This document shows, in pieces, positions 1-29,500 of a DNA stretch of 64,000 nt. The stretch covers positions 186,001 through 250,000 of the forward strand of contig MU004236.1 in assembly GCA_010405405.1 (NCBI GenBank). The letters run 5' to 3'. Every line of letters starts with the position of its first letter. The stretch's first letter is position 1. The position numbers were made by a program, and so were the translations under genes. This stretch comes from Microthyrium microscopicum. Lineage: Eukaryota. The notes beneath the pieces are model-generated. The model was not told the DNA's origin. It saw nothing but the letters and a program-made list of their open reading frames with translations, and did not search any database.

Positions 1-871
1 GGCGAAGAATATCTAAGCAGTGACCTGTTGCACCGCGGTTAATGGATTTGGTTGTATAAGCAGATTGAATTAGAACATGCCTGCGTGCTGAATGATAACA
101 GGTTCATCGTTCGCGAAAGGTCCAAGTCCTTGCTTTTGATAGTATCGATAGTTCCAGAACGATGTTTGGCGTAGTAAATTCTACACTTTTAGCAACCTTA
201 ACGTATAATGGCGAAGGGGTTCGCTCACCAGACAGTGCATATGATGCATTGCTTCAACATAACCGACAAACCCTCCTCCAGCCGATTGCTCCAACTTCAC
301 TTGACCTTTGTGGAGTCCAAACTTCGGTCCTTCTTTTGCAGGAATTGAAACGGGCCGTACTATTAAGTTGTAACTTAGTGCCTCAATACTAGGAAGTTGA
401 TCATAGCGATGGCTCACTTACAGTCAACTCCGAGTGCAATCCATGCTTTATCAACATCGTACCCACTGCCGGCCAGTTGTCGATATATCGTCGGTTTTGA
501 AAAACTGCCATTGAAAGGTACGGTATTGTAGCTAACACCAATGTCCTGAAAGATTGGTGAGTCTATACGACTGTCAGCATTGTCAACCCTGGGTTCACTA
601 TGTGGAGAAACGAACCATACTGTTCCGTATACCGGCTACAGACACGATCTAGATCATGATGAATGGTGAATCCGAAAATAAATATCACGTTTCCAATCAG
701 TGAGGCTGCAAATGTTGTGTATATGACTGCCAACAGTACTCTTTTTCTTTGCTCCGCCTTGCAAATGTTCTGACCTATATCAATGTCATCTTGAAGCAAA
801 TTGGCTTGAGACGAGCTTGCATGAAGTGTCTCTTCGCCATGGTAGCTGATATTCAATACATGATAGTCCAT
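1..871 (-). CDS. DUF3328 / UstYa-like oxidase (fungal RiPP/mycotoxin tailoring enzyme), 3' end runs off the window
   Basis: Manual splicing: exons 871-616, 562-422, 359-229, 180-81, 24-<1. The product has an N-terminal TM segment (VLLAVIYTTFAASLIGNVIFIFGF), then ...YRQLAGSGYDVDKAW..., and two HxxHC motifs, VEAMHHMHCLNLLRQ and IQHAGHCLDILR, which are diagnostic of DUF3328. The last intron (80-25) is GC-AG. Confidence 0.9.
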
Positions 872-1647
872 GATGCTTTCTACAGTGCGACAGAAGTTCC
901 AGCTCCAGGAGTATTGAAGGTGCAAAAAGCCCAGATAGAGCCGACTTAGACGACTATTTGAGAAATTTGTAAAACAGCTTCACTCGGAAACCAGAGTAGA
1001 ATGTTGGGGAGATCTGTAGGTAGGACGAGGTACAAACGCTTGTCGAAGCAGTCCTAGAGAGATTCCTAGCATTACAATCTGCTTTCTAAGACAATTGTTC
1101 AGGCATTGATACGCGACACTATCTGAGTAGATCCAGCTTGTCTATATTGAGCTGTTCCTACTAATCTGCCAGGTCTCGCCCCTTTACTTTTATCTGATCT
1201 GTGCCCATATCGCCGAGTGATATATGTGACATTCGGTTGCATTGAAATCCTTTCGCACCAATTTAGGTAGATAGAATATACTATTTTGGGATTGACTGAT
1301 TCATGCCAATAGCCGACGTGGGTAGCCTGTTGGTGAAACACTTCAACGTTGCGCTCCTGTGGAATCTAGGGAATATCATGGCTCCTTCTGACGCAAAAGA
1401 CTTGCCTGATCAAGAAGGAGTTAGTTCAAGAGCGGCGATGCATGAGCGGCGAAGGTTTGGGATCTGTCCGAGGCACCGAAACAGTGCAGTCCTTCATGGA
1501 GTCGATTTGTGAGTTGGCCTTGCGTCTCTGTCGTCTTTATAATGAGCTCATCAGGTCGTCAAGCCATTCAACAATCCAATTTTCTATCATTTTCAGCACC
1601 AAACCATAATTGTCATCCTTACCAAACAACCAGACCATTTCTTGATC

Positions 1648-1872
1648 ATGTTGAGCCTCGTATTCTTGGGCCTCTTTGCTGCCGGAGCTGTGTTTGGAGC
1701 TGCGATACCAAAGGAAGCCGGTGTAAGACTCCATTGCATATTTTTTTCCCTACCGGATCCAATAATCGTAGCAGAACTGACAAATTCTCTCGTACAGGTT
1801 GGTGAACCCATTCAATTTTATGGACAGTACAGTCAATACTCTGGCTATGTACCAACAGTGAAGGCAGAATAG
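1648..1872 (+). CDS. Small secreted Tyr-periodic peptide (49 aa spliced); candidate RiPP precursor A
   Basis: ATG at 1648 and a signal-like N-terminus (MLSLVFLGLFAAGAVFGAAIP). Intron 1723-1797 (GTAAGA...ACTGAC...TACAG). Spliced product: MLSLVFLGLFAAGAVFGAAIPKEAGVGEPIQFYGQYSQYSGYVPTVKAE*. Transcribed divergently from the DUF3328 gene. Confidence 0.7.
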   Translation: MLSLVFLGLFAAGAVFGAAIPKEAGVRLHCIFFSLPDPIIVAELTNSLVQVGEPIQFYGQYSQYSGYVPTVKAE

Positions 1873-2640
1873 CTAGAGGTGGAGGCGGCTGTCTTCAACT
1901 AAACCAGGCTGGACAGTACTAGATGTTCATAGCATAGCATAGCAGTTTATGATCCATGAGCCATTCAAATTCACTGTGTCGTGTGCTATTTAAATAAGTA
2001 TTTCGTGCTCATGGCGATATCTCTCCTCTACATACTCCCTGTCATCATGTCGATGTGTGCTTTTGACCCTTGTGGTGTTTTGCGCACATGGTAATGCAAA
2101 AGATGTTGTGTTCTCAGTATATAGGATTAGACCATTCTCGCGCGTTATTTGCCTTGCTGGTTTGCAGTGAAATTAGTTGGGAGGCAAAACGTACAGAACT
2201 TGGCCATCTTCCACCAAGATGTAAACACAAACTTGGCAGCATTATCCACATTTTTTTCTTTGAAAAAGGATACGAGAACCACTGGTCTTGTTCTTTCTGT
2301 CTATTTTAAAGCTCAGGCTCCAACGACACGGTCCTGGTCTTTCATAGTTTCGATGGGTTTACTCAAAGCGCAAGGAATGTCGAGTGAATGATTCAATATC
2401 CTGACGGGGAGTAGTGAGTACGAAACTGGAAAGGATCAATAGATTGTAGTGAAACCTGGCTGATATACTGGTTGCGATCTAGCTATTGCAAAAGGTAGAG
2501 ACAGACAAGGGCATGTGCTTAAAAAATCTGACAGGAGTAACGATAGAGACAGAGAAAATCAAGTGGTTGAACACTTGTAAAGGATTTCATCCTTCCCACA
2601 CTTCTCCATCAGTGATGGTTACCAGACTCGGCCATGTTAC

Positions 2641-3328
2641 TTAGGACTTATCAGCAGTCTTCTGTCGTTCCTCCTGCTCTTCTGCTTCCTGTCTGGCCTT
2701 GAACTCGGCGTCAAGCTGGGTATAATCATGCTGTTGGCCGTCTGAAAACCATTAGCACATGTTTGTGTGTCAGTAAGGGACGGGACTTGCTGTATTTTGG
2801 AAACTCTTTCTTGAGCTGTTCCCAATCGTCGGCCATGACAAGCTCGTTTGCTCTCTCCATTGTCCCGAGCGGCATGAATATCACATGCTCCTCTCCAGTC
2901 TCATCGCTAAAGGTCATCTTGTGAGGATATCGGACGCCCTTGCATTTAGTTTGCTCCCCATCACGATTTGTAAAGGTAAAGTTACCGCTGGGAAGCTGTT
3001 GTGATCCTGCACCTATCTCCATGATCAATGCACAAGTATTGCTATCGCCTAGAGAGATGCAACAGCCAGGTTCCCGACAGGCAGTTAAAGCGCCACCCCC
3101 GCAGGCAGCACGATTGAATCCGTAAATATCGTTTCCGTTTCGACAGCCTACGCAGTCCCCAGTACTACAAAACGGTTTCTCAGATGTGCAGCAAAAGCCG
3201 AAGTCTTCTCCAGGTTGGGAACACTCCTGTTTAGCGCCACCGCAGCTGTTGTTCTTCCAGAATCGAAGTGTAATGTCGGCCGATGCCAATTGAGTTAGAA
3301 CGAAGAGTGTAAAAACGATGGACTTCAT
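2641..3328 (-). CDS. Secreted cysteine-rich protein (effector-like), unknown family
   Basis: Signal peptide MKSIVFTLFVLTQLASA and about 12 Cys in the N-terminal half, including two CC pairs. A probable GC-AG intron at 2790-2742 (GCAAGT...GCTAAT...TTTCAG) gives the C-terminus NGQQHDYTQLDAEFKARQEAEEQEERQKTADKS*. Confidence 0.75.
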
Positions 3329-4251
3329 TGCGAGGTTAGAATTGTCAAGTGATACTGGTGCTGAATAGAGAATGCTATGGACAGAGGAGACTTACAATGC
3401 GTGTTGTTTGATTCTTATAGAAGAAGAGCTTGTCTACAGAACAATACAACCTTCACTGGTCATGAACACGTCTCTATCTCGCCGTGTTTATGGGATGGAT
3501 TACGTGCCAGTTACTGATTGCTGCGAGGAATCGCCGTCTTCAATATGCTCAGGTCGATATACAGTGTGTGCTTAGATATTGTCGATGCGATGCTACCTTG
3601 ACAAGGAGAACCAGCTTCCTTCGAGCTGCGGATCGTCGCCAGGCAGGAAGAGACTACGAGGTAATCAGGATGTATGTCAAATTAGTATTGCGGCAAAGAT
3701 GAGATATGTTCAACTGTGGCGGAGGAAGAAACGACGAATTCTAGACTTTTATAGGGGCGGCACAGTAAACAGGCAGCAGTAGGATGCCAAGAATGATGCC
3801 TACTATAGATAACCTATAGGAGTTCAGTCGCACGACTCAAACTCTTGCTGTTATGTGCTGTGCCGCCTATATTCTTATTGGTCGACCCCTGGCCTCGAGA
3901 TCGCTAGGATCCAACTTCATTGTTTATGTCTTCTCTTATCTACGTACTAGTACTTATCGGAATTGTAATGTCGAAATCCTTACAACTCCTAGCGGCTCAG
4001 TATTTGAGCTTTGAACTTCAGGAGCTAAATCTCACAGTGAAAGCAAAATAGTGGTTGTTTTCACCAAGTGGAGGTACCTCGCAAAAGAATCGTGAAGTGA
4101 CGTAAATCAAGGCAAATTACGCAGGTACCATGTAGGTAATCATGTAAATATAGTGTATCAAAATCTTGCTAAAGTCTTTCAGGTATGACATGCCAGCGAC
4201 ACAGACTACATGCCCCTTCCCAACAGTGAGTGTCAATAGACTGTGCGAACC

Positions 4252-4497
4252 TCAATGTGCCTTCAGAGAGAGCCCATGATACTGGCCATATGTACCATAC
4301 GATCCTGAACACACGGTTAAGCTCAAGTACCAATGCGTAGGAGGCCTGAGAGTCATACCGACACACCATGGCGTAAGTGGTATACACCAACAATCCTTTG
4401 CCAAACAGTTCCCGTCGGCATGGATGCTAGTTGGCATCCCGAAGATAGCTGCACTGAGCGCAAATAGGACACTCGAGATGGATATGATGTTCTGCAT
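4252..4497 (-). CDS. Small secreted Cys/Tyr-rich peptide (63 aa spliced); candidate RiPP precursor B
   Basis: ATG at 4497 and a signal-like N-terminus (MQNIISISSVLFALSAAIFG). Intron 4358-4305 (GTATGA...CTTAAC...TTCAG). Spliced product: MQNIISISSVLFALSAAIFGMPTSIHADGNCLAKDCWCIPLTPWCVGSYGTYGQYHGLSLKAH*. The tail aligns with precursor A. Confidence 0.65.
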   Translation of the reverse strand: MQNIISISSVLFALSAAIFGMPTSIHADGNCLAKDCWCIPLTPWCVGMTLRPPTHWYLSLTVCSGSYGTYGQYHGLSLKAH

Positions 4498-5350
4498 TGC
4501 TGGTACACGTGGCCAGTCACTCGTGGTACTTAGCGCGAAGGGAGTTGAATAGATGTGAAGTTTATGGTTACTCGGATGAGAATGCCCACCGTTACTCCAT
4601 TGATATATTATTAAAAGGGGAAATGACTCGTACTGACATCCCTGGTAGGAATGATAGGATTGTGGCACGAGTAAGTGTTTTTTTGCATCGCCGCTATGGG
4701 ATTTGGAGAAAGCGTATTGCTTATCAAGGAGGTAGGGAATGATACTATTAGATCCATGATAACATTGATCTTGGCCAGAAGGCTCCGCTGCTGCAACATG
4801 TCGAGACCTCTTTCGGCAGGTAGCATCAAAAATGCCAGCAATTCTAAGCTGCGAGCGCATGCAGGCCTTATCTCACATCGCCGCCATAGAAACGAGACGA
4901 CCGTGGCCATCTATCGTACCCGCCTGAGTAAGTAGTAGACGAGATCTATGTTGGAGCCGCGCTGATAGTAAGTCTCTTTCATCACGGTAGATCTGGGAAT
5001 CTAGAATAGAACGTTTCACCAACAAATGTCACCATTGAGAATCCTTTCTACTCATGATGAATCAATTACCAATCCTTACATCATCCTTGCGGCAGAGCGA
5101 CTGAAGATTCTCGCCTCTTTAACGATAATGGGTATAAATGAGATAAAAGACTCATAATGAATTACCGGATCACCAGCTCAGTACTCAAAAGCAAACACTC
5201 CCACGATCTTTTTGTATTAAACATCTTTAACAGCTCTTTCATTGGTATGATACACCTTACAGTTGCCATTGTCACATTTCCTCAGAAAGATTATGTCGCA
5301 AAGAAAACTGAGTCAAGCTAACTGATATCAAGATCTTGCCAATTCACAAA

Positions 5351-5896
5351 ATGTTTTTCTCGACTGTGACCACCGTGTCTGTCATTACCTTTTCACTACT
5401 TGGCCAAACTTATGGAGCAGTAGTCTTGCCAACAAGAGATATTGCAACACCCGCTCAATTCGAAGGATTTCACGTCCTGACATCGACACCAACCGATAAA
5501 GGTTTGATCACCTGGTATGGATCAAACAATCCGCCCTCCGCTGCCTACAACTGTGGCAATGACGCTCCAATTGATTGCGACAACAGCAATTTAGCTTCAA
5601 AGAACATCTGTCAAGACCTTGCCAATAATCTCAACTCCGATACTGGTGGTGGCCTTCCAGTTTCGCCTCGCTCAGTTTGCATCAATAATGCAGGCAACGT
5701 CTGCTGTATCAGCTGGGCAAACGATGTAGGGGGCATGCTCAAGGGTTATCTGCTCAGTGGCTTCAATAATGCGATGAACAGTTGCAATCCTGGGAACTCT
5801 CAAATCTCAGCTAGGGTCCATAATGCTAGATTGGGAGGTGTTTGTACCACTGAATGTGTTTCAAACAGACCATCTCAATGCACAAACGGTGGTTAA
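5351..5896 (+). CDS. Small secreted cysteine-rich protein (effector-like)
   Basis: Signal peptide MFFSTVTTVSVITFSLLGQTYG and 10 Cys in the pattern C..CDN..C..PRSVC..CCISW..C..CTTECVSNRPSQC. A probable 5'UTR intron lies near 5246-5331. Confidence 0.8.
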   Translation: MFFSTVTTVSVITFSLLGQTYGAVVLPTRDIATPAQFEGFHVLTSTPTDKGLITWYGSNNPPSAAYNCGNDAPIDCDNSNLASKNICQDLANNLNSDTGGGLPVSPRSVCINNAGNVCCISWANDVGGMLKGYLLSGFNNAMNSCNPGNSQISARVHNARLGGVCTTECVSNRPSQCTNGG

Positions 5897-6658
5897 AACT
5901 GTATGCTGAACGATCTGGAGCTTGTACTTGAGACTTGGATCTTTTGTGTTCTTGATGGGGCGACTGTTTCTCGAAGATGTGTTTCAAGGACTACCAGGTA
6001 CCTTGAGCTGGTAGAGGGAGTTTTGCTATTTTGTTGCCGATAGCTGTAGGGTGTTGAATTTTAACCTTCTCTTCTCATCATGTGCGAAAGCTGCTTTAGG
6101 ATGGGAGGTCATTTTGAAAACCCTTCTCATCCTGATTTGCGTCCAACATATAGATATAGTATCTTTCTTGCTCTTTTATTTGCCAGGCCGCGAAAAGCCT
6201 TGAATACTAGTTCAATGTTAACGAGACAGATCAGCCTTGTCTTCATACAATCGATGTCGGTAAGGTTTGCTTGCTGTGATCGTCCAGCCAGTCTTGACGG
6301 GCGTCAATTGATGGTTTCATTTCTCACGACTCGATGTCAGATCATTTACGCGATTTCTTAAGCCTTTCAAGAAGAAAGATTGAATGTGGGTGGTATGTCG
6401 ATTGACTTGCGCTCGGCTGTAAACATTGAAGAAGGGGTGAAGTTAGGTTGAAAACGTGGCGCTTGATATGGGTTCCATGGATGTTTCAGGAGCACAGGAG
6501 GCTCTTCAGAGGGGCTGGCAGCCCCACACCATCTATCGTCGACAAATTGGTTGAGCTTCATCTCATCTCCAAGAGTTTCATCAATTGAGCGAAAGCAAAT
6601 CAGACCTGAGAGACGAGTTCACGGTATCATTGGCCACATCTGAACAAGTTGGGAACTG

Positions 6659-7431
6659 ATGGCTGACCAAGCTGGAAAAGATGCTGCTATCAAGCAACGC
6701 ATCATTTCTCACATGAATAAAGATCACTATGAATCTGTAGGTTGCAGCCTCACCTCAATACTCAATAAACTTTTAACGAAGACTTAGATAGCTTTATATC
6801 TGGAAAACTATAAGGGTTTTTCGAGAATGGCAGCCAAGGGCGCTCAATTGTCCGACCTGACTCTCAATGACCTCACAATCCAAACAAGCAGTCAGCGTGT
6901 AGTGCTCTCGCTAGATCCTCCAATGAAGAGTCTATCAGACTCTCGCGGCCGTCTAGTTGACATGGACAAACAGTGTCGACAACAACTCAATCGTAGTTCC
7001 TTGACAGTTAGGACATTCACATACCCGACCATTGCAGGCTGGGCCGTATTCATCCTCTCGATCTGGACTATCTGGATGTTGTCTTCGGTTAAAAACATAT
7101 ACCCCGGTGGCTTCCACTATGAGTATTTTTTAAAACATATTCCACTGCTTCCCGCCATCGCGCAGAACTTACGATGGCCGATTCTTGCGTTCATAATAGT
7201 TGCGCATACGGGCGAAGCATATCTTATGACAGGACGGATGAAGCACCACAATGTACCGCCATTTTCAGGATTATGGCTGGCTTGGGTTGTTGATAATTGG
7301 TGTGAAGGCTTTGGTGCAATTCAAAGGTATAGATGACATTTTGAACATATATCATTGGTTTCTAATCTTGATCTAGATTCAATGCACTGATCAAGGAGAT
7401 GAGGGTGGCCGCTGAGAGCAAGAAGCATTGA
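6659..7431 (+). CDS. DUF2470-domain integral membrane protein
   Basis: Exon 1 reads MADQAGKDAAIKQRIISHMNKDH (DUF2470-type RIISHMNxDH motif). Introns at about 6737-6787 and 7327-7376. The C-terminal TM segments include IIVAHTGEAYLM...WLAWVVDNWCEGFGAIQRF. Confidence 0.8.
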
Positions 7432-7858
7432 TCTTTCTATGATTGATTTTGTACACAAAGTGCAGTCTTTGGCTATACTCTGATTGACTTTATCACCTTA
7501 CATAAAGGTTTGGAAATAAAACTAATCTCTGTATATAATACACAAGTCGCATCTTTCTCGTATATATGGGACTTCTCTTCTCGTCGCTATCATGAACTGC
7601 AAAAATCATAGACCACTTGTTCAAAATCAACAGCTAATAAAGGGAGCCTGCTTTGTTTTTGATCTTCTACCAAACCCTTCAAAACAATAACATAGAATAA
7701 TCTTGTGTACTGTTGTTGTTGAATTGGCTTGAAAGGTTCCCCACATTTGGAGTTGCTTACTGGTAGATCGGATGCCGACGCTTGCCGCGACAGCTACCTC
7801 ATCCACCACTAGGTATTGTTTCTCCACTTCTTCAACTCTAAGCTCCAATTTCATCACA

Positions 7859-8964
7859 ATGTCTCTTCCCAAAACCGTCCCTCGAATTGCACGAACCGCA
7901 CGCTTTGCTCGTTTCCACGCTGGTCGACAGGACACCTCCTGCCGTAGATTTGCCACCGCAGTTGGCGATCATGTCTCCATTGTCGAAGTCGGACCTCGCG
8001 ACGGCCTTCAGAACGAGAAGAACACCATCTCTTTGGAGACGAAAACAAGCCTGATTGAGCGATTAGCCAAGACAGGTCTGTCTACCATCGAGGCTGGCGC
8101 GTTCGTAAGCCCGAAATGGATACCGCAGGTTTGATGTATGCATACGCTTCCTTGGGCGAAACTCACCCTTAATAGATGGCAAACTCCGACCAAGTACTAC
8201 AGCATCTACTTGAACCCCACGATCTACCAAAACACATCAAATACCAATTCCTCGTCCCCAACAGCAAAGGCCTAGAAAGCTTTCTCGCTCTATACGAAAA
8301 ACAAGCGCCCAAAGACCACGAGCCTATGGAAGTATCAATCTTCACCGCCGCCACCGAATCATTCGCCCAAAAGAACACAAACTGCAGCATCGCCGAATCC
8401 CTCACCCGCTTCGAGCCTGTCTTCTCCACCGCCAAAGCACACAATATCCGCGTGCGCGCTTACATTTCCGTCGCCCTTGGTTGCCCCTATGAAGGGCCTG
8501 ACGTCGATCCTAAAGTCGTCGCTGACCTCGCCGTAGACCTTCTACAGCTTGGCGCAGAACAAATTAGCATTGGCGATACTACTGGTATGGGCACGGCGCC
8601 CAAGACGCGTATATTACTGAAGACGTTGGCGGCAGCGGGGGTGGAGATGCAGGATGTTGCGCTGCATCTGCACGACACGTATGGGCAGGCGCTGGTGAAT
8701 GCCGTGGTGGGCGCTGAGGCTGGAGTGCGTGTGTTTGACGCGAGTGTCGCTGGACTAGGCGGGTGTCCATATAGTCCTGGCGCGACAGGGAATGTGCCGA
8801 CGGAGGATATGGTATACTTGTTTGAAACTCTGGGACTCAGCACTGGGGTAGATTTGCCAGCGTTGGCGGAAGTGGGGGAGTGGATTTCGCGAGAGACGGG
8901 CCGGAGTAATGAGAGTCGGGTTGGCAAAGGGACGTTGGCGCGAGCACGTCGGAAGCAGAACTGA
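7859..8964 (+). CDS. HMGCL: Hydroxymethylglutaryl-CoA lyase (mitochondrial)
   Basis: Motifs [23 protein letters not shown] and [12 protein letters not shown]...TGNVPTED, plus an Arg-rich mitochondrial presequence. Intron 8129-8175. Confidence 0.95.
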
Positions 8965-10324
8965 ATGATCTGTACGGCCCGAATTGTTTGTTGTCTTGAT
9001 AACTGGCTTAAAGGGGCTCTAAATACGTGGGATTACATGCATGCCGATGATCCCATCTAAGATCGTGCTGTATGCTGGATTAGGACCAAAAAGTGGTCAA
9101 GAAGACAAGATTTGGGGTTTATTTGCTATTTGGGCGTTTGATATCCCTGTATGGAGCGGGACTCGTATCTGATCAAGGCTTAATATGATGTGTTCCCAAC
9201 GCGTGTGATACGACGATAACGCGGTTGTTGATTGTGTGAGCACATGATTGAAAAGCACCCGATGTTATGTTACCGATCATATAGATTTATTGGAGAATCA
9301 TAGAAGAGGGTGGTGTCTGGAATTTAATAGGTCGGAGCAATAGGTATTTACATTATACCCTGACAGTAGGCATATTTTCAGCCTTGCGGTACATGATTGG
9401 CTCAATGGGACTGGACAGGGAATTGCCAATCGGCTACTGGAACCAACATATAAGCTAGTGTATCAAGTGGTCAAGAACAAGAACTTTTGGTGGATAGATA
9501 CGTTTACAATACCAAGTCGTCCAAAAACAAGACGGATGTTTACGCTTACAGCGCTATGTAAATTTGTAAAATCTGAAATGGTAAAGAAAAATGAATTAAT
9601 CGGGCCTTTACATACAAGACTTTCTTATAGTTCGGGCTGGTGTATGTTCTGTGGCTCAACGCACCTGCCACTCAACGGCTTGTTGCGGGAACTAGCGATT
9701 GTGCCTGCCAATAGAAGCAGCCAAATGTTGCAAGAGGGGTCGCGGCAAGAGGAAGGAGCGTTGGGAGTCCAATGGAATTTAGAGAAGACAGGCGCGACTC
9801 GTGGACGGGAAAGAGCAGATCCCTGTCAGTGGATTGTGGCTTCCTAACGTTCAGTTGTTCCTTCCCCCTAAATCTCAAGATTCTATGAATCCATGCCCAG
9901 AGTATCACGGGCAGGTACGCTGCATCTCTACCACGTCTGCTAAACATCGCGACTGCACCTACAAGTCAAAAGTCTACATAGACGATCGGGCCTTGAGACA
10001 GCAGATCCGCTCACTCTTCTCTTCTTTCACTTGTTGCGAATTTGTATTTCTCTTTTCCCTCAATTGATATCTTTCAGACTGTAAACTTTATCCTGCATCC
10101 TCCACGTCTCAGCGCATCTCCTAATCCTATTGCGCAGATCCCGAAATCCGCCTCGCTTGTCCGCCCTATCTTCCTTTCGCCATCATTTGGTAATAACATT
10201 TGCAATCGGTCGCCTAGACGTACATCTACTCCGTAATACTGTCTCCTTCACCTCCTTCGTCGCCTCCTCCCGATATTCATACTACACGTAATGATCCGCA
10301 ATATCCAATAATATCACATCCAAA

Positions 10325-13300
10325 ATGCCCTGGCAACCCCTACCAGGCATCGCATTCGGCGTCTGCGTCTACCCTTTCCAACCCGCCGGATCTGCCGAAC
10401 TACCTCTACACATTGGCGATGAACTCTACGTTGTCGAACAAGGCGGAAAAGATGGTTCCTGGTACCGCGGATACCTAGTCGCTCCGCCATCCGTATTGGC
10501 GGGTTTAACAAGCGTCAAAGGACAGACTCTCGAGGCGCGCATATTTTCTGGCATATTTCCAAGATGTTGTGTCGAAATTCGCGAACTTTTGGTCGATGGA
10601 GAGCGTAGTGCGCCTGGTGCATTGAATGGCAATGAAAGTTTGGATGCCAATGAAGAGATCCCACCCGTTCCGGCGAATGGCGTCTTGACTCCATCGAACA
10701 GCGCTTCACCCGATGCAAGAGCAAGCTATGGTGCGAACAAGTCGCTAGCGAGATTGGATGCTCCTGGCGAGGGGACTAGCATCCCAGTGTCGCGTTTGCA
10801 CAAAGCTAAGAGCTTACGGCTCACCCAGCGCGTGTCAAGCCAAACCGTTCGATCGGACGCTCTGGCGCAGAATTTACCAATGTCGCCAATGTCAGTGATA
10901 TCCCGCGATCCGAACGCTCCCAGACCACCTGCGCCCTTGCCGGCACTCAAAGTTGGCGATGAAACGCAAACGTCTGCGCAGGAACCACTGGTAGATGAAA
11001 TCGCATCATGTCTAAGGGAGTGGTACACTGCGAAATTACACGAACTTTTACTGGCTAGGCGGTACACAACTTTGGATCGAATGGCTGTCTTGGTCAAGAG
11101 ATTGGACACTGTTCGACGACAACTTTTACATCGCGTACTCACGGATCAGGAATTAAGAGCACTACGAGAGAAGACTGTCTGGGATTTGGTGACCGGTAAC
11201 AAAATGCTATGTGGAGAAGTAATTGTGCGGGATCCTCTTCAAAATGGCAGGATACTTACTGCGGATGATTCTCCCATCGAGGTTACAAAGCTTCAGTCAA
11301 TGATGAGCTTACTGCACGAGAAGCCGGTCCACCACACGGATGAGCATATGCCGCATCATCTTCTGGTGCAGTTCCCGGGCTCATTTGGGGAACTCTCCAC
11401 GCCCAAAACTATTGCAGTTCATCTCTGCATCAAAACTCCAGGAGGCCAAATTTTACCCGTTTCCGAGGTTCACGCTATTAATATCTCCGCTACCACTGGC
11501 AGCGGATCAGAAAACACCATGAAGACCTTGTTCATTAATATTGGTTCGACAGATATCGGCGAAGGAGCAGGAGCAGGCTCAGTTCTTTTCGTCGCATTTA
11601 AAGTCATTGTCAATGAGCCACTCCGGGCTGCTCAGACACAAGCATTCCCTCGCGAAAGCACCTCGAGTAATGGAACCAACGACTCAAGGGCAGGACATGG
11701 AACTCTGAAAGGCCGAAGAAGTTTGATGTGGAGCAGAAGCGGAGATCGCGGCGTCACTAGTCCAAAGTCACCAGAAATGCGGACGATCGCCGAAGAGTCG
11801 AGGCCGAACACGAAGAGTGACAAGATGGTCAAGAGGACAGTTGCGGCCGCTGTGATTCGAGTTGATCATCTACTGCGCGAAGATGTGGAAAAGGAAGAAC
11901 AACTCACATTCTGGTCCTCGTCAACTTTCCCGGTGGAAGAAGGTGTTGAGGGCGAAGCTAAGTGGGATAATGTGCTAAAGGAAGTGCTTCCAAGTAATTC
12001 TGGCGAATACCGAAAATACCCATTCCCAAAAGCAGTCAAGGTTTTTGTCAAGCCATTCATGGATCTGGATGCGGATGCTCTAGTCAAGAAAACACCTACT
12101 CTACTACAACATATCAGTCAAACCCGGAAAATCGGCTTCATTGGCGCTCCAAGCAAGCAAAGAAGTGACATCTATTTGTCTCTTTCTGAGATTGTTATTC
12201 CACGGCACGCTTTTCTGGCACACCCAAAGAATGGAGCTGTACCCATGGGCGCACTTTCTGGGCAGGCAAATTTACAACTAACGCTCGAAGTACGGAGATC
12301 CAATGGCCACCGCATAGAAAACTGCATTTTCCCGTCCTGTAATAGCCAAGGACATACTGCGTGGCGTACAACAGCTTGCGAAAAGGGCGAGCCATGGAAT
12401 CTAACCATCCGACTGGCCATCAGTCCTGAAGATGTTCCTGGATCCCATATCGTCATGAGCGTAGCTGATCTACCCGGCTTCCCATTTGCGCTCTGCTGGA
12501 TGCCTCTGTGGAACGAAGGTGCTTTCATCGAAGATGGAGAGCATTCATTGTCGCTATATCAATATGACGAATACACATCAAGCATAATATCCGGGCGTGG
12601 CGCATATCTTGCGCTGCCCTGGCAAGCGATGAAGAACGATGACCACAACGGCGCAACCATGACGAGGCTGCAAGTTCGAACTTTTCTCTGCAGCACCAAG
12701 TATTCTCAAAATCCGACACTGTTAGGTGTTTTGAAATGGAAAGTTCAGCCTCCTGGAACTCTGCCAGGGCTGCTTAAGAAGTTCAGCTTTGTGCCAGAGA
12801 TTGAGATTGTAAAATTGCTGAATGAGGTTTTTGACGCTCTTTTCGAAATACTGGTGGATACTCAAGGCAGTGAAGAGTATGAAAGATTGGTCTTTACTGA
12901 TCTCGTCTTCGTTTTGGGTATTGTCCATGATCGAAGATTCAAGTTGGCTCCTCTTGTTGACAAGTACGCCGAGGAAAAGTTCCGATATCCAGTTGCTGGC
13001 TTGTGCTTAGTAAAAGCATTCATCCGGCTGCTTTCTACTCCGACTGATGCCGAATTCTCACAAACTCTTCGAGCAGCTTTCAAGGTCGCTAGACATCTGT
13101 TCAAGTTCATTGGCGCTGCCTGGAGCCATCAAGAGAGATCCGATCGCGAGAACAATCGAGGAAACCGGAAAAAGTTGGCTTTCTTGAAAGATGTGAGCGC
13201 TATTTTCGAAAGTCTGGAATCACTGATGAAGAACCCAAACCCGGTATTGATAGGCACCAAAACCTTGGTTGTTCAACATCTACACACATGGCTTCCAGAG

Positions 13301-16300
13301 CTTGTACCAATCATGCCAGCAGCAGACATCCTTCAAGTTGCCATCAGTTTTATAGACTCCTGCAATAACGTCAAAGGAAAACTAATCCTGTACAAGCTGA
13401 TCTTGATCATCAATCTTAGCAATATCGATGCCATCGATTATCCAGAACACAGACGCAATCTCCGAGTCAAGACTGTAAGATGGCTCTCAGACTACTGGGG
13501 CAAGACGGAAGACTACAGCGAACAGTGGAAAGAACAAGTTCGGTTATGTTGTTCAGTCATCGCCTCCCAGCTTAACGAGCTGGGGGATGAGGGCTATGAA
13601 TATATTCCTAAGCTCATCGATTCGTATCGGGTCATTCAGATATCTGATCGACCTGCGAAGAAACAACTCTCCCTCCTCTTTCCAACGGCTTATCCATTTC
13701 CCTCTCGGCCAATTCAAGAGACGACGGAATTTGACGAAGCATTGGCAGAAATTGCAGCTGTTCTAGCTGGAATCACTAGTCTTCCAACTGGCATTCATCT
13801 TGACATGCCGCTCACGGACAAGGCAGAATTCCTATTCAGTGCGCTACAGATGTATATCTCTGTTCTCGACGGCGAAGCTTATCCACAATCATGGCTCAGT
13901 GTCCACATCTATCATCATAAATCGACCATGCGTAGCTTGGAGAAATTGTCGAGTATTTTGATCGACTCATTCCTTCCCCATCCCGATGACGCTGAGATGT
14001 TCGACACCAATCTGTGGAGAACCTTCTTTGATGCCCTTCTTAAATTGGTTGGCAGCGAGTCCCTCGCGCTGGAGACATTCCCTGAGCAAAAACGCAGAGC
14101 AGTCTGGAAAATCGCTGGGGATGTTCGAGAGCAAGGCGCTGATTTACTCCGCCGGACTTGGGAAGCCATTGGCTGGGAGACCAGCCCTGAAGACAAGGAA
14201 AAGTACGGTCTTGAAAAGCTGGGTGGATATCAAGTACAATACGTACCTGGATTGGTTGGTCCCATTGTGGAGTTGTGTCTCAGTGTTCACGATAGCTTGA
14301 GACGAGTCGCCATCCAAGTTCTCCAGACAATGATCATTAGTGAGTGGACGTTGAACCGCGATTTGACATTACCGGAAGCCGAAATTATCGAATGCCTCGA
14401 CAAGCTTTTTAAGAGGAAGACAATCAACGAAAATGTCATGCAGAAGCAATTTCTCGCAGAACTTCTTGAGCTTTTCAGACCTCTGGCCGAGCGAACGCAG
14501 GATGATGAGCTGCTGGATGCTGTGAAGAACCTTATTGCGACTATTGATGAGCTTCTTGATCATCTCATTGCTGTGCACGCCTCGGATGGAACAAGTGAAG
14601 CAGTTAAGCTTATGGAGACATTGCATCTCATGGAATTCCTCAAGAATATGCAAAAGGTCGACATCTTCATCGGGTATGTTCATAAGCTGGCCGATATTCA
14701 AGCAATCGCAGGCAATTGTACTGAAGCTGGTCTCGCATTACGCCTTCACGCCGACTTGTACGAGTGGGATCCTTCATCAGTTGTGGAACCATTAGAAGAT
14801 CCACATTTCCCATCACAGACGTCTTTCGAGCGGAAAGAGCAGCTCTACTTCCAAATGATTAAGCTCTATGAGGATGGACAGTCCTGGGACAATGCTTTGG
14901 GTAGCTACATGGAACTCGCCGATCAATATGAGCACAACATCTTCGACTTTGCCAAATTAGCTAGAGCACAACGAGCCATGGCAACAATTTACGAGGGTAT
15001 CAGTCGTGGTCAGCGAGACAATCCAAGATACTTCAGGGTCGTATTCCACGGTCTTGGTTTCCCTGTCACTCTTCGGGACAAGGAATTCATCTACCAAGGT
15101 CTTGCTACGGACCGCATGGCATCATTCCTTGATCGTATGCAGCGCTCATATCCTAATGCTTCTGTTCAAAGCGGTGGTGCCGGTGGAGTCTCGGGATATG
15201 ACGAGGGACAATCTGTGCATGTCTACCCAGTCACTGCGCAAAAAGACATCAATCATCCCATCTATCGTCGGGCAAAGGTTCAGCAATCGGTTCGAGACTA
15301 CTATCTTTTGTCGAGACCGCATCAGTTTGCTTCATCATCCAGGCGGAAGCCAAGTGATGGTGCAGTCAAGGATCAATCCGTTGAAAAGACGATATTTACC
15401 ACGGCTGAGGCGTTCCCGACAATACTCAAGAAAACGGAGATTGTTGAAATGACCACCATCTCCCTCTCTCCTCTTCAAAGCGCTATTGAACGCACCACTC
15501 GCAAGACAGCAGAATTGGCTGCTTTCGAGAAGCGTCTCACTGCTGGCGAAGACACCGCTGCTCGTGAAGCCTTGACCACAGCTCTGGAGTTTGCAGTCGA
15601 TCCATCTAGCCCATCGAGCGTCGCAAACTACAGACCCATGCTCGAGGACGAATCTGAACAAGACAAGAAGCACAAACAGCGTGATTCTCACACCGATAAC
15701 GAGGACTCGGAAGACAGCGATGAAGAAGATGAAGATGAAGAGGACGATGAACCAAAACCACTCTCTCCCCTCCAACACGCCCTCAAGATTGCCCTTTTAG
15801 ACCATGCTCTCACCATCAAGCGCTGTCTCGCCCATTTCCAACGGACCGCACACCAAGCCACCCGTGCCGATCTATCACAACGTAAGTCCCTCCCAATATC
15901 TCCAATCCTCCCCACTGCTAACTCACATCTAGGCTTCGAAACAACCTTCGCCCCAGAACTCGCCAGTCTCTCCGGCCCACCCGGAACCTCCGACCCCGTC
16001 GAATCAACCTCCTGGGCCGCCGCCAACCACGGCCCCACCCCACCACGCAGCGGCACCATCTCACCCGCCTTCCAAAATCCCCGCCACGCAAACCCCCTCC
16101 ACAAATCAAAAAGCAGCGGCAAAAAGTCTCCCGCCCGCACGCGCAGTGAGAATAAACACCGTCTTAGCTACATCTTTACGAAACGTGCTTCTACTGCTGG
16201 TGCTGATGATGCCCCTGAAGCTGTCAATGGTGGTGGTGATTATAGACAGCACCTTGACAGTGGGGAGGGCGAGGCTAGTCATGCGGGCGCGGCGGATGAT

Positions 16301-21851: not shown

Positions 21852-24800
21852 TCAGCCTTCCATGCCGTACATTATACCATCTGGCTGGGCGCTGATACCA
21901 TTGCCATTGGTAGGTTGCATGACTGGGCCTGGTTGCCACATAGAATAGAATGAATCGAGGTCGATGTGTTCATCTGCGGCATTGGATCCGTCATCTTGTA
22001 TGCTCATGTTATCGCCAGTATTGAAAGAATCAGCAAACTCCAATAGTGGTGGAAATGCCACGCCATTATTGATGTTATAGTTCATAGAATTGAGCGCCGC
22101 AGCCGGCAGAGGTGTTCTGTTGGGTATAGGTGAGAGTGGATTATTAGGTCCTGATGGCGCAAGTGGCTCCAGTGGTGTCGGTGTCGATGAGGTAGACTTT
22201 CCAACAGGACGATAGTTTGGCGGAATCGATGCGGTGGTAGTGTAATTCGTTGTGGCAGCTTGGGAGAAAGGACTGGATGGTTGTTGAAATGGAGTGTGAA
22301 AGGGTGTCCCTGTTCCTGGGCCATATGGACCTGGTGCTCCGAAAGTCTGCGCCGATGGCAGTGGAGTAATATCTCCATTAGAAGCCCCAGAAGGCATCAT
22401 AGGTGGCAATTGATTGTCATCATCTTGCTTCCCTCTGAAAATGTCTACTGCATCGCTCAGAGTTTTCATGATGTAAACAAGTCGATCTGCTTGTTCGTCT
22501 CCATCGTGATCCCTATTCCCGCAATAGTCCATTATTTCAAAGGCATCGCGAATACATTTTGCGGCCGCTCCGTGCTTGTGGAGTTTGCAAAAGTCATTGG
22601 ACAAAAGGATGAACGCGGCAGATGACAGGAAATACACAACGAGGGGATTGCGCCTTGGAAGTATCTTTGCGTCATACGCTCCACGGACTATAGCCACTGT
22701 ATGAGTTGCAGCACTAACGCAGGCCTCGCTGTAAGCCATCATATTGTTGAATCCCCTTCTTTTTGCTGGCAAAGGTTGACCGGCCACCGTAGTCAGTCTT
22801 GACAATTCATGGTTGAGTACATATAGGAAGAAGGGTCGCGTCAATAGAATGACGGAATGTGTCAGAAACAGGTTGACATGCATAGTTGCAGTGGCGTTGG
22901 GTGATTTGGGGTAGTGAGGATCCTGCCAGCGCAAGCTAAGCGGCATTCTAGTGTCCAATTGTCTTAGCAATGAAGCGATATCCTGAGCAATAGCCGTAGA
23001 AACTCTCTTTTGTTGGTATGTTTTCTTGAGCACAATCCCAATGGCAGAGCACACTCTACTTGCCACATCTATGGGATCAACGGCAGGGATGAAGTTGGGA
23101 CTGGGGACTTGCTCATCACTTATTCCACTAGAGATGGATGCGCGTGGAGATGCGTGGCCATAAATCTCGTCCTCAAATATTGCGGTCGGCCTGCCCATAG
23201 ATAGTGAAAGAAACCTGTCCATGTTGAACAACGATTTCCAACAATTTCGTCTGAGCAATTGATCCGGATGATCAAATATTCTCAAGCACTCTTCACGATG
23301 AAGTCCTAATGCATAGGCAGAGCGAATGGCCATTCCCAAGAGCACAAACGCTGTATTTCTCTTGCCTTTAGTCATCATGAAGATAGTCATGAGAAGCAAT
23401 GCTTGACAAGACCAAAAGTCGGCATCTTCAAGTCCGGTTTGAGGATCGCACTGCGACTTGGCGTTGATGTAAAATATCTCACCACGATCAGGATTGGAAT
23501 TTTTTAGTCCCTCGATGACTTCGGCTTCCTCAGATCCTGGCTCGGGTGTGGCCAACATGAAGCCGATGGCAAAGACGAGATTGATCAGGCATAGGTTCTC
23601 CGATTCTGCGGCCAAAGGATCCGAATATGTCCGCTCCAAGAGATTGTAAAACTGTTCCTGATCAAAGACTGTGACCATTCCAGCAGTGTGGAGGAAAAAG
23701 TACCGAGTCAGTAACTTGGCAGTGCTTTGAGTGGGAAACATGTTGTTAAGTGGTGTTTTCCCAATCACAGTGAGTTGTGGTTCAGTTATCATGTGTCGTC
23801 TAGGGTCGGACACAAAATCGCAGCCAGGGACGAGTGGTTCGATTGAGTTTCTTAGCAAGCCAATAAACGCTAGAGTAGCAGAATCTCCGATGTACACTAA
23901 TTCCATCTTAGCTTGGACACCCAGAGCCAAGGAGAAACTTACAAAGTCGGTTGTTGCTGTCTTCAAGCATACGAGATTGGCTATAGACCAAGGCCTCACC
24001 TATATCAAATTAGTTAAAAGTCAATGAGCGAAAATTGTGCAAGACGATGCGAGCTATTTGTTGTTCTAGTTGAATACCAATAAGCAACGCATTGCCATAA
24101 TAGCATGCTCTTTTGAGATAGGTGATATTATGCGTTCATGATGTATCTGGATGGGAAAGCTTTACCTTCTTGACCACTCAAGTTGCTAACTATTGAAAGA
24201 AATGATTTGGTGCGATCCTCGTTGCTAGCCCGAAATTGAGAAAACTGTTGTAGAGATCGTGCGGCTCGTGTCATGCTTTCGTCTGCAGTAGCAGTACCTG
24301 CAGCCGTAGCTGTGGGCGGAGGTGGTCCAACAGGTGCCGGGATCGCGAAGGAATTCGAATGTGAGGTTGGCATGTTATTTAAAACTGCTGCTATGGATGA
24401 ATTGTAGGGAGCCGGCGCCATTGCTCCTATATGAGGAGGTGACATCTGCGCCCTCGGCGGCTGATTAGCAGCGGATTCGAGATGACGCTGCTCAATCCGC
24501 TGCTTTTTCCGCGCCATTTTCTCAGCTGCTGTAGCATGATGATTGCTCGATGTGATGTAATCACAATAGAAGCTACGCTTCTCGCATGTCTCGCATGGTT
24601 TTTTGCCGTTGCACTGTTTGGATCGTTAGTAAGTATCCCCGAAAAGGGGGCGGGGAAATCGGGACCAGGCTGGGTCATGATGATATATCAAGTTCCCATC
24701 CGTCCACGAGAATGACTGCCATCGCACTTTGAATCGGGAAGTTTACAATTACACCCATCGCATCCTGTCAATGACCAGAAAAGTTCTTGACAAATGGGAC

Positions 24801-26186: not shown

Positions 26187-29100
26187 TCTCTGCTGCGCGT
26201 TCTGTGCTACACAGGGCAAAAATCTGGCCTATTGATTTAGCTACAGATCTAGGAATCTGATTGGATCGCATAATAGGATTGAGGAGTGCGTTAGTATGTA
26301 GATTTATATGTAATTAGACTATTAGTAGCTATAAAGTAATACTAGTTTTATAGTGCTTCCTAGTGATCTAAAGATAGGCTAAAATATATAGATTTTAGAG
26401 TAGGAATTCCTTGCTAAGGATATATTATAATTAATTAATCTTTATACCGTTCGAAAGCTTAAAAGAGCTAGATTCTTATTAAATTATTAGCAAATAGCCT
26501 TATCGTCATTATTCTTAATAATTATGTTAAGTAAATGCCCTATATTAGTAGATTTAGATCCTATCGCTACTTAATGCTCTACTCGTAGAAAGAAGATTAA
26601 TAAATTAATACCTAAGACGCTAGTAGATATACCTACTTAGATTATAGGTAAAATAAGCTAAAATAACGCTCTAGTTCTAGGAATAGCTCTTATAGTATCT
26701 TAAGATATTTATACCTTTTAGACACTCGCTAGAAGTCTAATATAGAGCTAAAATTAAAGCTCTTTAATAGTAATTCCTAGCTCTTTAATTAGCCATATAG
26801 AAGAGATAGATAATAGGGCAAACGCTAGCTAGAGATCTTAATAGCCTAGATTTAACGAGTTAACTATATCTTAAGTTCTAGAGCTACTATTATAACTAGA
26901 AGGTAGTTTAATTACGCTAATTTAAATTAATAGTAAGCTAATACTAATTATCTCTACTAAGATTAGTAAATATAATATTAAAAAGGGAGGGAATAAGCCT
27001 TAACTAAATAAGATAACTATAGAAGTATTTATAATACTTTCTAATAGTTAGAAAGAAGCTCTAAAGTAGAAGAATTAGCGTGCTAAAGAATAATATTATT
27101 CTCTAGGCTTAATAACGTCTATATAGACATATTTTTAACTTCCTATTAAAGAAATAGGCAAGAATCTATTTATGCTATTCTTTTTTAAGGAGGATAGACT
27201 AGATATTAAATAGGAACTAGTAAAGGTTAAGAAACGCTTCTTTAATTATTTTAAAATAGGTACTATACTACCTAAGCTAGTTATACCTAAATAGAAGATA
27301 ATGTAGATAGTAAATAAAGCTAATAATACCTTTAAAGAGTTTAGGATGCTAAAAGAACTAGAGGCTTAAAATAATTCCTAAAAAGATGCTAATAATACTA
27401 AAATTAATATTATTATTACTAAGAATTAACTCTATAATAATGCTAATACCTATAGTATATTATTTAGTACTTATAGTTACTATGAATTACTTTACTCTAT
27501 AGTAAAGCTTAAGGGATATTGCTACGTTATTAGAAGTACTAACTAGTACCTAGTTATTAATTTAGGAACCTTCTACTGTTAGGCTAATATCGTTAGTCCT
27601 ATAAAGCCTTAAGAAAGCTTTAATAAACGCCCTCTAGATAAGATTTTAATAAAGATCTTTGTTCTTAGTACTAGTAAATAGTTTAATAAGAATTCCTATT
27701 CTAGGAGTAAGCATAGTAGTAAAGATAAGAATAATTTAGAGTACTTTAATAGTAATAATCTATATTTTAGCTTTATGCTAGTAGATATTTAGGCCATAGT
27801 AGTTATAGGCATAGAGGAGCTAGTAGTTAATACTATAACCCTAAATATTAATATTCTACGTACTAGTAGTCTATTACTACGTACGCTATTAGATTTAATT
27901 ATTTTTAATCTTAATAAAGAGTTAAAGATGTTTAAGGAGTAGTTATCTTATTATATAGGCATTAAGACGTCTTAGTTTAAATAGGTAAAGTTAATTCTAA
28001 GTGTTTGTTAAAGTAAGTGTATAAGAATTAGTTAAGTAGTAGTAGAAAAAAATGTTAGGGTCTTTACTATTGTTAACTCTAATATTAAGAAGAACGCTAT
28101 AAGCTATTTTATTGTTTAAGTTAAGGAATAGTATAATTAGGCTTAAAAGGAAGCTAAATAACTTATAGAAGAGAGTTAGATAGAATAAGATAGTTATAAG
28201 CTATTGCTAAATATTAAATTTACTATGTCTAAAGTGCTTTATTACTTACTAGTTAGTATTGAGTTCCTTTAATCCTAACTTAAGATATTCTTTAAAGAGC
28301 TAACTTTCCTATCTTTTTTCTTAATAAAGCCTATTATTTAATTAAAGCTACTTTTTTAAATTACTAAATAATTGCTTAATAGGATTGAAATTAGGGCTAT
28401 AGGGAGGTAAGAATACTAGTTATATACTAAAATAATTAAAAAGAGCCCTTAGATCTTTAGCTTAGTAAAAGCGCGCGTTATCTATTATAATGACTAAATT
28501 CCTAGGCGTAGGGAAGAGAGAATACTTTAGAATTAGATTATATTTATACTAGTAGGTAAATCCCTTATTGTTAGTATTGTATTAATATAGATCTACTGCT
28601 AAAATTCCTTATGTAGTATATGCTAGTAGTATATTCTATTTCTTAGAGCTTTAAAGTAGTAAGAATATAGCGCATTCTATATTTTTTAGGCTCTATCCTA
28701 TCCTATAGGCTAAATAGCTAGTTCCTGCGCTGTATTTATCTATATAAATAATTTAATCTAGATAATAATTATTTATTTCGTTATAGAATTCTTATTAGAG
28801 GTGTAAAGATTGTTAAATAGCTATATTATAGCACTATTTTAGTATAAATACGATAAGAATTAATTAAATAAAGCTATAGTAACGACTTACCCTCTTTTTG
28901 GTCTATTTTATATACTTTAGCGCTTAGTATACTATATTATGGCTTACTTTAACGTTAAAGACATTCATTAGGTATTCTACTATCTTGAATTAAGTAGAAT
29001 TAGGCTTTAATATTAGATATTCTACTAATATGATTATTTTTAAAGAATTAATTAAGGGTCGTCATTAAATAACTCTAATAGTGTTAAAGGAATTAGTTAT

Positions 29101-29500
29101 TTTAAGCTTTCTATGCTAATAACTAATAATCTTCTAAGAATATTCTAGGGCGCTAGTAATCTTGCGATAAGAGTACTCTATAAGAATTATATCTTATACC
29201 TAATAGCGTTTAAATTTATTAAGGTGCCTACCTAAATTTATTATAGGAAGAGATGCTATAATAAGATTAGTTAAAACGAGTAAGATTTAAGGATTTGAAT
29301 AATACTAAGAATGTTATAAAGTTAGATATTAAGATATATTATTTATAATAATATATAGAATTGCTAAGTACGCTATTATATAAATTTGTACTGTAGCATA
29401 CTCCTCTAGTCTAGGGTCTCCCCTAATTAGGATCCTAGATCTGTAGCTGAATCAATAGGCCAGATTTTTGCCCTGTGTAGCATAGAACGCGCAGTAGAGA
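26187..29500. mobile_element. RIP-degenerated DNA transposon (~3.3 kb) with ~65-75 bp terminal inverted repeats, flanked by TA
   Basis: Left end TA|TCTCTGCTGCGCGTTCTGTGCTACACAGGGCAAAAATCTGGCCTATTGATTTAGCTACAGATCTAGGA matches the reverse complement of the right end (...CTAGATCTGTAGCTGAATCAATAGGCCAGATTTTTGCCCTGTGTAGCATAGAACGCGCAGTAGAGA|TA). The interior is extremely AT/TpA-rich and has no ORF in the track. TIR mismatches are TG->TA and CA->TA. Confidence 0.9.

Follow-up and report, generated by a model that had tools for sequence, protein, structure and literature searches.

Small candidate secreted-peptide genes beside a UstYa-family oxidase gene in Microthyrium microscopicum

Microthyrium microscopicum is a Dothideomycete of the order Microthyriales. 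A stretch of 64,000 nucleotides from its genome (assembly GCA_010405405.1, contig MU004236.1, positions 186,001 to 250,000 of the forward strand), hereafter called the window, carries at its left edge a gene for an oxidase of the UstYa (DUF3328) family and, close to it, three small open reading frames (ORFs), here named A, B and C. The question raised by this locus is whether the small ORFs are genes at all and, if so, whether their peptides are substrates of the neighboring oxidase. A first-pass annotation had proposed that A and B are precursors of a RiPP (a ribosomally synthesized, post-translationally modified peptide) of a new fungal type. On the basis of the analysis below, A, B and perhaps C are most likely real, lineage-restricted and unannotated genes for small secreted peptides that belong to one loose family.

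Small reading frames A, B and C

The three ORFs and their features can be read directly from the DNA. ORF A (1648..1872, plus strand) is composed of exon 1 at 1648-1722, a 75-nt intron at 1723-1797 (GTAAGA...CTGAC branch...CAG) and exon 2 at 1798-1872 including the stop codon, and it encodes 49 aa when spliced and 74 aa when unspliced. Its product has a signal-like N-terminus, no cysteines, a tyrosine at every third residue from position 33 (33, 36, 39 and 42) and the ending TVKAE-stop. ORF B (4252..4497, minus strand) consists of exon 1 at 4497-4359, a 54-nt intron at 4358-4305 (GTATGA...TTCAG) and exon 2 at 4304-4252 including the stop codon. It encodes 63 aa when spliced and 81 aa when unspliced, with a signal-like N-terminus, a middle part containing four cysteines, tyrosines at 49, 52 and 55 and the ending SLKAH-stop. 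Both models reproduce exactly the peptide lengths, the tail alignment and the three-residue tyrosine spacing described in the first-pass annotation.

ORF C (3926..4051, plus strand, 41 aa) was not among the ORFs of that annotation. It lies tail-to-tail with B at a distance of 200 bp and shows a signal-like N-terminus, a single QY and the ending TVKAK-stop, with neither cysteines nor the tyrosine periodicity; it is possibly a degenerate third member of the family. In the plan common to A, B and C, a putative signal peptide is followed by a variable middle and by a tail that contains QY and closes with [TS][VL]KAx-stop. As had been claimed for A and B, the peptides are non-repetitive and KR-free: no internal repeat was found in the spliced sequences of A, B and C, and no KR, RR or KK dibasic site in the spliced ORFs.

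The ORFs were compared within a set of 470 ATG-ORFs of 40-120 aa from the 64-kb window. Eight of these (seven distinct) passed a hydrophobicity rule for a signal-like N-terminus, and A, B and C are three of them, all located within 1648-4497. Among the 21 pairs that the seven can form, the three most similar pairs of tails were A-B (0.0015), A-C (0.0385) and C-B (0.151). The local alignment of A with B reached a score of 36, which was equaled by 4 of 2000 composition-preserving shuffles, and B was the top match in the real window when the tail of A was compared with all six-frame segments. The pattern YG.Y.QY, chosen post hoc, occurs twice in the window compared to a mean of 0.01 in 100 shuffles, and the likewise post hoc pattern [TS][VLI]KAx-stop occurs three times in the six-frame window, solely in A, C and B. 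The only DNA match joins the ends of A and C (16/18 nt), with a score reached by 10 of 300 shuffles. A profile built from A, B and C identified no fourth member in the six-frame window (next segment E 3.3), and the three local promoter regions share no 8-mers, with a mean of 0.46 in shuffles.

Codon usage was examined against 264 small ORFs. The spliced ORF A scored 0.258 bits per codon, at the 99.6th percentile, and the unspliced ORF stood at the 87th. Removal of either proposed intron, that of A or that of B, raised the coding score, the intron segments scored below the exons, and the in-frame intron of B has a non-coding look at -1.14 bits per codon. ORF A is clearly better supported than ORF B.

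A separate observation concerns the DNA of the tyrosine ladder in B, which is nearly palindromic: the opposite strand reads Y..Y..Y (4280-4330, plus strand), followed by TVK. This plus-strand segment was considered as coding sequence and rejected; a stop codon lies directly before it, no AG acceptor is present, and the first in-frame ATG is at 4424.

Several results weigh against the existence of a peptide family. The motif patterns were all defined post hoc, from sequences already seen, and the signal-like calls come from a home-made rule and not from a trained predictor. Codon scores are average for B (54th percentile) and C (49th percentile). In 29 of 60 shuffled windows, a six-frame segment matched the tail of A at a score of at least 36, and leave-one-out profiles run on about 2,500 segments placed A at rank 8 (E 7.2), B at rank 69 (E 60) and C at rank 186 (E 120). 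The likeness between the signal ends of A and B, to which the first-pass annotation had drawn attention, proved not significant (124 of 2000 shuffles). Each intron has a length divisible by 3 and lacks stops, leaving the frames open whether spliced or unspliced, so that the ORFs alone give no evidence for splicing. The intron-like pattern adds little, as it occurs 114 times in the real sequence compared to 116-140 times in shuffles and is present in 41 of the 470 small ORFs. Finally, DNA alignment of the A and B loci revealed no similarity between the two genes, yet motifs are common to them at the protein level, and this is also the appearance expected of old paralogs under selection, which counts for a family.

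The lack of a homolog of ORF A belongs to the same side of the balance. A word-based search of 5.8 billion protein clusters with unspliced ORF A returned one candidate and none that scored, and an exhaustive search of 1.84 billion representatives returned two matches, both to repeat proteins and both leaving the tyrosine tail unmatched. These two matches were judged spurious, being broken into 7 and 5 stretches over the signal end and the intron-coded part. An exact look-up of unspliced A, B and C together with two neighboring control ORFs in a 15-billion-sequence set found 0 of the 5, a result that says little because both controls were absent too. For ORF B, the best ESM Atlas value was 0.78, where recognition is below the useful level and amounts to noise. 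Pfam searches with A and B and an Rfam search of positions 1-6000, all at E up to 1, gave no match. The 5.8-billion-cluster set holds the public model of the neighboring oxidase (P0001, described below) and not ORF A. A spliced entry for A would have had words in common with the query, so the public gene set containing P0001 lacks an annotation of ORF A. The earlier statement that gene callers miss these peptides is borne out to this extent for A, and it holds only if A is a gene.

Weighing these results together, we lean modestly toward A and B being real, related genes. What the first-pass annotation noticed is real at these positions and is partly confirmed; the statistics give it moderate weight, which varies with the framing of the search space. 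We infer that the ORFs are transcribed, spliced, translated and secreted and that they are paralogous. The peptides would then enter the endoplasmic reticulum (ER), have their signal peptide removed and be exported from the cell at about 25-43 residues.

The oxidase gene at the window edge

The family, motifs and exon structure of the oxidase could be established by homology. The gene occupies 871..1 on the minus strand, with its ATG at 871, and is truncated by the left edge of the window. Its public protein is P0001 (BT63DRAFT_471365, 240 aa), which is letter-identical to exons 1-3 of the window and matches the UstYa family PF11807 with an E value of 1.8e-29 (103.7 bits, cut-off 25). A five-exon model was built on tblastn with four homologs (P0005, P0007, P0010 and P0008), and a family profile of 260 positions was made from five (P0005, P0006, P0007, P0009 and P0010). 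In this model, the four introns are 53, 62, 48 and 56 nt long as placed by tblastn and the profile.

Exon 1 (616..871, minus strand, as are all that follow) corresponds to residues 1-85 of P0001 and aligns in tblastn with P0005, the ortholog from Tothia fuscella (EJ08DRAFT_700807; 42% identity). Its product starts with a basic cluster, probably cytosolic, ahead of a hydrophobic stretch that would anchor it in the membrane, and by the positive-inside rule the oxidase domain would face the lumen. Exon 2 (422..562), placed by tblastn and the profile, shows 69% identity to P0008 and 42% to P0005. Exon 3 (229..359) ends in the first HxxHC motif, HHMHC, and is recognized by Pfam as UstYa by itself (PF11807, E 1.7e-4, 22 bits). 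Exon 4 (81..180; NLLRQ...QHAG) is spanned by tblastn alignments with P0005, P0007 and P0010 and is skipped in the public gene model. It is followed by a predicted GC-AG intron of 56 nt (25..80; GCATGT...CAACAG) and by the start of exon 5 (1..24; HCLDILR...), the latter supported by P0001, tblastn and the profile. The C-terminal 64 residues, encoded beyond the left edge, are known from P0001 alone.

The second HxxHC motif, HAGHC, straddles the junction of exons 4 and 5 and requires the GC-AG intron at 80..25 to join HAG to HC. This splice is predicted from homology, with HAGHC of the ortholog P0005 at the same alignment position. The public model passes from HHMHCL directly to LMCTADTS, leaving out exon 4 together with the first part of exon 5. 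When P0001 is compared with the family profile, it aligns in two stretches with positions 150-192 missing, the second HxxHC among them, and Pfam likewise splits P0001 into two stretches and matches P0005 in one. The five-exon model, by comparison, gives a single unbroken match to positions 5-190 of 260 with both motifs inside. Judged by its homologs, P0001 is therefore mis-spliced and has lost the second HxxHC motif, likely because the last intron begins with GCATGT and is of the GC-AG type.

The motifs HHMHC and HAGHC align with those of four of the five profile homologs (P0005, P0006, P0007 and P0009), and the model of P0010 is gapped at the second motif. The Tothia fuscella ortholog carries HHVHC and HAGHC at the same places in the same layout. 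By these comparisons, the oxidase is an intact and genuine member of the UstYa family with both HxxHC motifs, which bears out the earlier description of a DUF3328 gene with two such motifs, the second of them by way of the predicted intron. A sequence search of solved structures with P0005 found no relative, the only two rows being chance matches (E 0.45-0.49).

Two further sequences resemble the oxidase. P0002 (BT63DRAFT_451851), a 163-aa public model on another contig of the same genome and without a Pfam match, has a C-terminal part that is 91-95% identical to oxidase exons 2-3 and is fused to an unrelated N-terminal sequence; its locus looks like a recent partial duplicate of the oxidase. 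P0008, a 257-aa environmental protein (JGI record) from an 8.3-kb fungal contig, is 59-69% identical to exons 2-3 and runs through the intron positions, which marks it as an unspliced call.

Substrates, orphans or chance

According to the first-pass annotation, A and B are single-core, Kex2-independent precursors whose tyrosines are cross-linked by the adjacent UstYa oxidase. We regard this as unlikely. Its product might carry, for example, Tyr-O to beta-carbon ethers as in asperipin-2a, and the locus would then be a minimal new dikaritin-like one. The reading is chemically sensible, and it draws on adjacency, tyrosine composition and a common secretory compartment, which fit it without deciding it. 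The oxidase is intact with both motifs. Its start codon at 871 and that of ORF A at 1648 lie 776 bp apart in the divergent arrangement reported earlier, sharing an intergenic region (872..1647) with a TATAA about 110 nt upstream of the ATG of A; ORF B is 3.4 kb away. Four tyrosines in A and three in B stand at an exact three-residue spacing, and secreted peptides would meet a membrane-anchored, luminal oxidase in one compartment. On physical grounds, the oxidase could modify A and B, although we hold this to be improbable.

The nearest precedent for so small a cluster is that of asperipin-2a in Aspergillus flavus, with the four genes aprA, aprY, aprT and aprR (PMC6514808). Its core, FYYTGY, is closed by ethers from a tyrosine side chain to a beta-carbon, and its Tyr-Tyr spacing of 3 recurs in A and B. 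As in that very small cluster, a single UstYa-family oxidase adjoins a secreted tyrosine-rich peptide, represented here by candidate ORFs only. However, AprA is a Kex2-processed repeat protein, whereas A and B are single-copy and have no dibasic site; no transporter or reductase gene stands beside A or B, and the present locus is known from its sequence alone. The ustiloxin and phomopsin (dikaritin) clusters also share with it the class-defining DUF3328 protein with two HxxHC motifs, a pair proposed as the mark of RiPP-related DUF3328 members (PMC12048977). Those clusters combine a repeat precursor and 2-5 DUF3328 genes with a tyrosinase, a methyltransferase and a peptidase or transporter (PMC7329392, PMC12048977, PMC6514808), and these were not found in the window.

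Among the features that define dikaritin precursors, tandemly repeated cores and dibasic sites on either side of them are both absent from A and B. A Pfam scan was performed on 143 stop-to-stop ORFs of at least 90 aa, exons shorter than 90 aa and the left flank lying outside it; among these ORFs, no tyrosinase, methyltransferase, peptidase, transporter or regulator was detected within 20 kb of the oxidase, and no S41 peptidase near it. The nearest fungal transcription-factor domain is at 21,855-23,999, and a BSP peptidase at 35.4-36.2 kb. If C is a family member, its lack of tyrosine periodicity means that the periodicity is not a conserved feature, and the doubts about gene status, from the shuffled windows to the leave-one-out ranks, apply to this reading as well.

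Published surveys count on both sides. Across 1,461 fungal strains, a Kex2-repeat precursor was present within 15 genes for 31.8% of 9,399 DUF3328 genes; the mean distance was 3.09 genes, and immediate adjacency was the most frequent arrangement (Umemura 2020, PMC7329392). Tyrosine is commoner in repeats with a DUF3328 neighbor and is enriched in the precursors that have one (65.6% versus 38.2%; PMC7329392). These two trends speak for a precursor beside an oxidase. The figure of 31.8% also makes an oxidase without a recognizable precursor nearby the common case and not a signal in itself, and members of the family act in non-ribosomal and polyketide pathways too (PMC12048977). A lichen study describes DUF3328 clans R1/R2 that have conserved HxxHC pairs and no repeat precursor nearby, as here, and its authors suggest that the precursor lies elsewhere or is a "single core peptide" (PMC12048977). 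Those clans are conserved across species and have accessory genes, of which none was seen at the present locus. Single-core fungal precursors are known outside the DUF3328 class, such as AcaA (acalitide, 81 aa; PMC10840396) and the Amanita MSDIN peptides, which resemble A, B and C in being short, non-repetitive and tens of residues long. They differ in being matured by peptidases (AcaB; prolyl oligopeptidase) and not by DUF3328 enzymes, and no sequence similarity to A, B or C was found in the searches made. Our literature search, with subscription journals largely beyond its reach, yielded no account of a DUF3328 enzyme that acts on a precursor with a single core and no repeats.

In its extended form, which we consider doubtful, the proposal would give a UstYa-type oxidase its first single-core precursors that do not depend on Kex2, namely A and B, and C would be a relative of them in decay. 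The signal peptide alone would deliver them to the lumen, where the oxidase would make a ladder of tyrosine cross-links on the Y-x-x-Y-x-x-Y tail; this, too, has little probability in our estimate. The same low probability attaches to a role of the [TS][VL]KAx C-terminus as a recognition or follower element.

A quite different explanation, which we hold to be a substantial possibility although well short of even, is that A, B and C are chance frames in intergenic DNA, that their tyrosine resemblance is a coincidence found by eye, and that the region holds only genes of the annotated type, namely the oxidase, a Cys-rich secreted protein and a WD-like protein. Chance readily supplies material, with 470 small ATG-ORFs in the window, and the similarity to the tail of A is not significant window-wide. 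The failure of the leave-one-out profiles, the average codon scores of B and C and the lack of a homolog of A in two protein-set searches agree with it, as do frames that are open without splicing, as scanned chance frames would be, and the near-palindromic DNA of B, which yields the tyrosine periodicity on the opposite strand at 4280 as well. What chance accounts for less well is that three of only seven distinct signal-like small ORFs in 64 kb fall inside 2.9 kb, that their tails form the three most similar of 21 pairs, that A has so high a codon score, and that [TS][VL]KAx-stop ends A, B and C and nothing else in the window.

The oxidase may also be part of a conventional cluster that has its precursor or core enzyme beyond the left edge of the window, for instance a Kex2-repeat precursor or a non-ribosomal or polyketide pathway. 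This is compatible with the other readings and in our view rather unlikely. The gene is cut by the window edge, half of its neighborhood lies beyond, and the right side holds no cluster-type genes. Positions 1-15,724 gave no tandem repeat, and, low-complexity runs aside, the whole window gave no ORF that combines repeats with dibasic sites, so that a conventional KR-repeat precursor is not present in the 63 kb on the right side. The combination of a signal peptide with dibasic-separated repeats that characterizes Kex2-processed repeat proteins (KEPs) was likewise not found. The 31.8% of DUF3328 genes with a repeat precursor within 15 genes, at the mean distance of 3.09 genes, speak for this explanation, and DUF3328 enzymes take part in the astin, atpenin and cyclochlorotine pathways (PMC12048977). 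Nothing in the window counts against this explanation.

The reading that we favor, while placing it somewhat below an even chance, is that A, B and perhaps C are ordinary orphan secreted peptides and that the oxidase is an orphan neighbor. They resemble the orphan small secreted proteins of Dothideomycetes, which are effector candidates, in having a putative signal peptide, in being small and, by the searches with A, homolog-free, and in lying among genes for secreted proteins. Most annotated effector candidates are longer than A, B and C, and cysteines are missing from A and C. An ordinary secreted protein is readily taken for a dikaritin precursor, and the reverse (PMC9632046).

Surrounding genes and wider meaning

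The first 6 kb of the window contain, in order, the oxidase (minus), ORF A (plus), a Cys-rich gene (minus), ORF C (plus), ORF B (minus) and a WD-like gene (plus), and 1.6-5.9 kb forms a run of secretory-type genes (Cys-rich, WD-like and small ORFs). The secreted Cys-rich protein is encoded between A and C at 2729..3328 (minus strand). It gave no match in a local copy of Pfam, and no link to peptide maturation was seen; in the ESM Atlas it resembles ARB_05566 N-terminal domain clusters from Ascomycota (0.93, 192-194 of 256 features shared), which serve as a lead only. As read from the sequence, a short intron in this gene and a charged C-terminal extension down to about 2640 are probable. The product of the gene divergent from ORF B (5351..5896, plus strand) is a secreted protein in which Pfam recognizes a fungal WD-like domain (PF20493, E 3.9e-17). 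Further to the right, Pfam identified genes for a DUF2470 protein, an HMGL-like enzyme, a DOCK protein, a PLD-like protein, a HET protein and a Serinc protein.

An AT-rich block at about 26,250-29,500 has a GC content of 0.22-0.31 compared to about 0.47 around it, a TpA/ApT ratio of 1.5 and a (CpA+TpG)/(ApC+GpT) ratio of 0.53. No ORF of at least 90 aa occurs between 25,908 and 29,662. By its composition, the block carries the mark that repeat-induced point mutation leaves on a dead repeat.

A modest and solid gain from this locus is the corrected oxidase gene model, with its predicted GC-AG intron and restored second HxxHC motif. Beyond it, for the substrates of DUF3328 genes without a recognized repeat precursor, the locus offers a concrete, falsifiable candidate of two or three genes that can be tested directly and cheaply in a heterologous host. 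If A and B were indeed precursors, they would represent a dikaritin-like RiPP class that is invisible to repeat-based mining and to standard gene callers. Single-copy secreted peptides would then be established as DUF3328 substrates, and a large, so far hidden repertoire of fungal ribosomal peptides could be mined by a simple rule, namely an oxidase with an adjacent signal-bearing, tyrosine-rich small ORF. Such peptides might explain some of the many DUF3328 genes for which no precursor is known.

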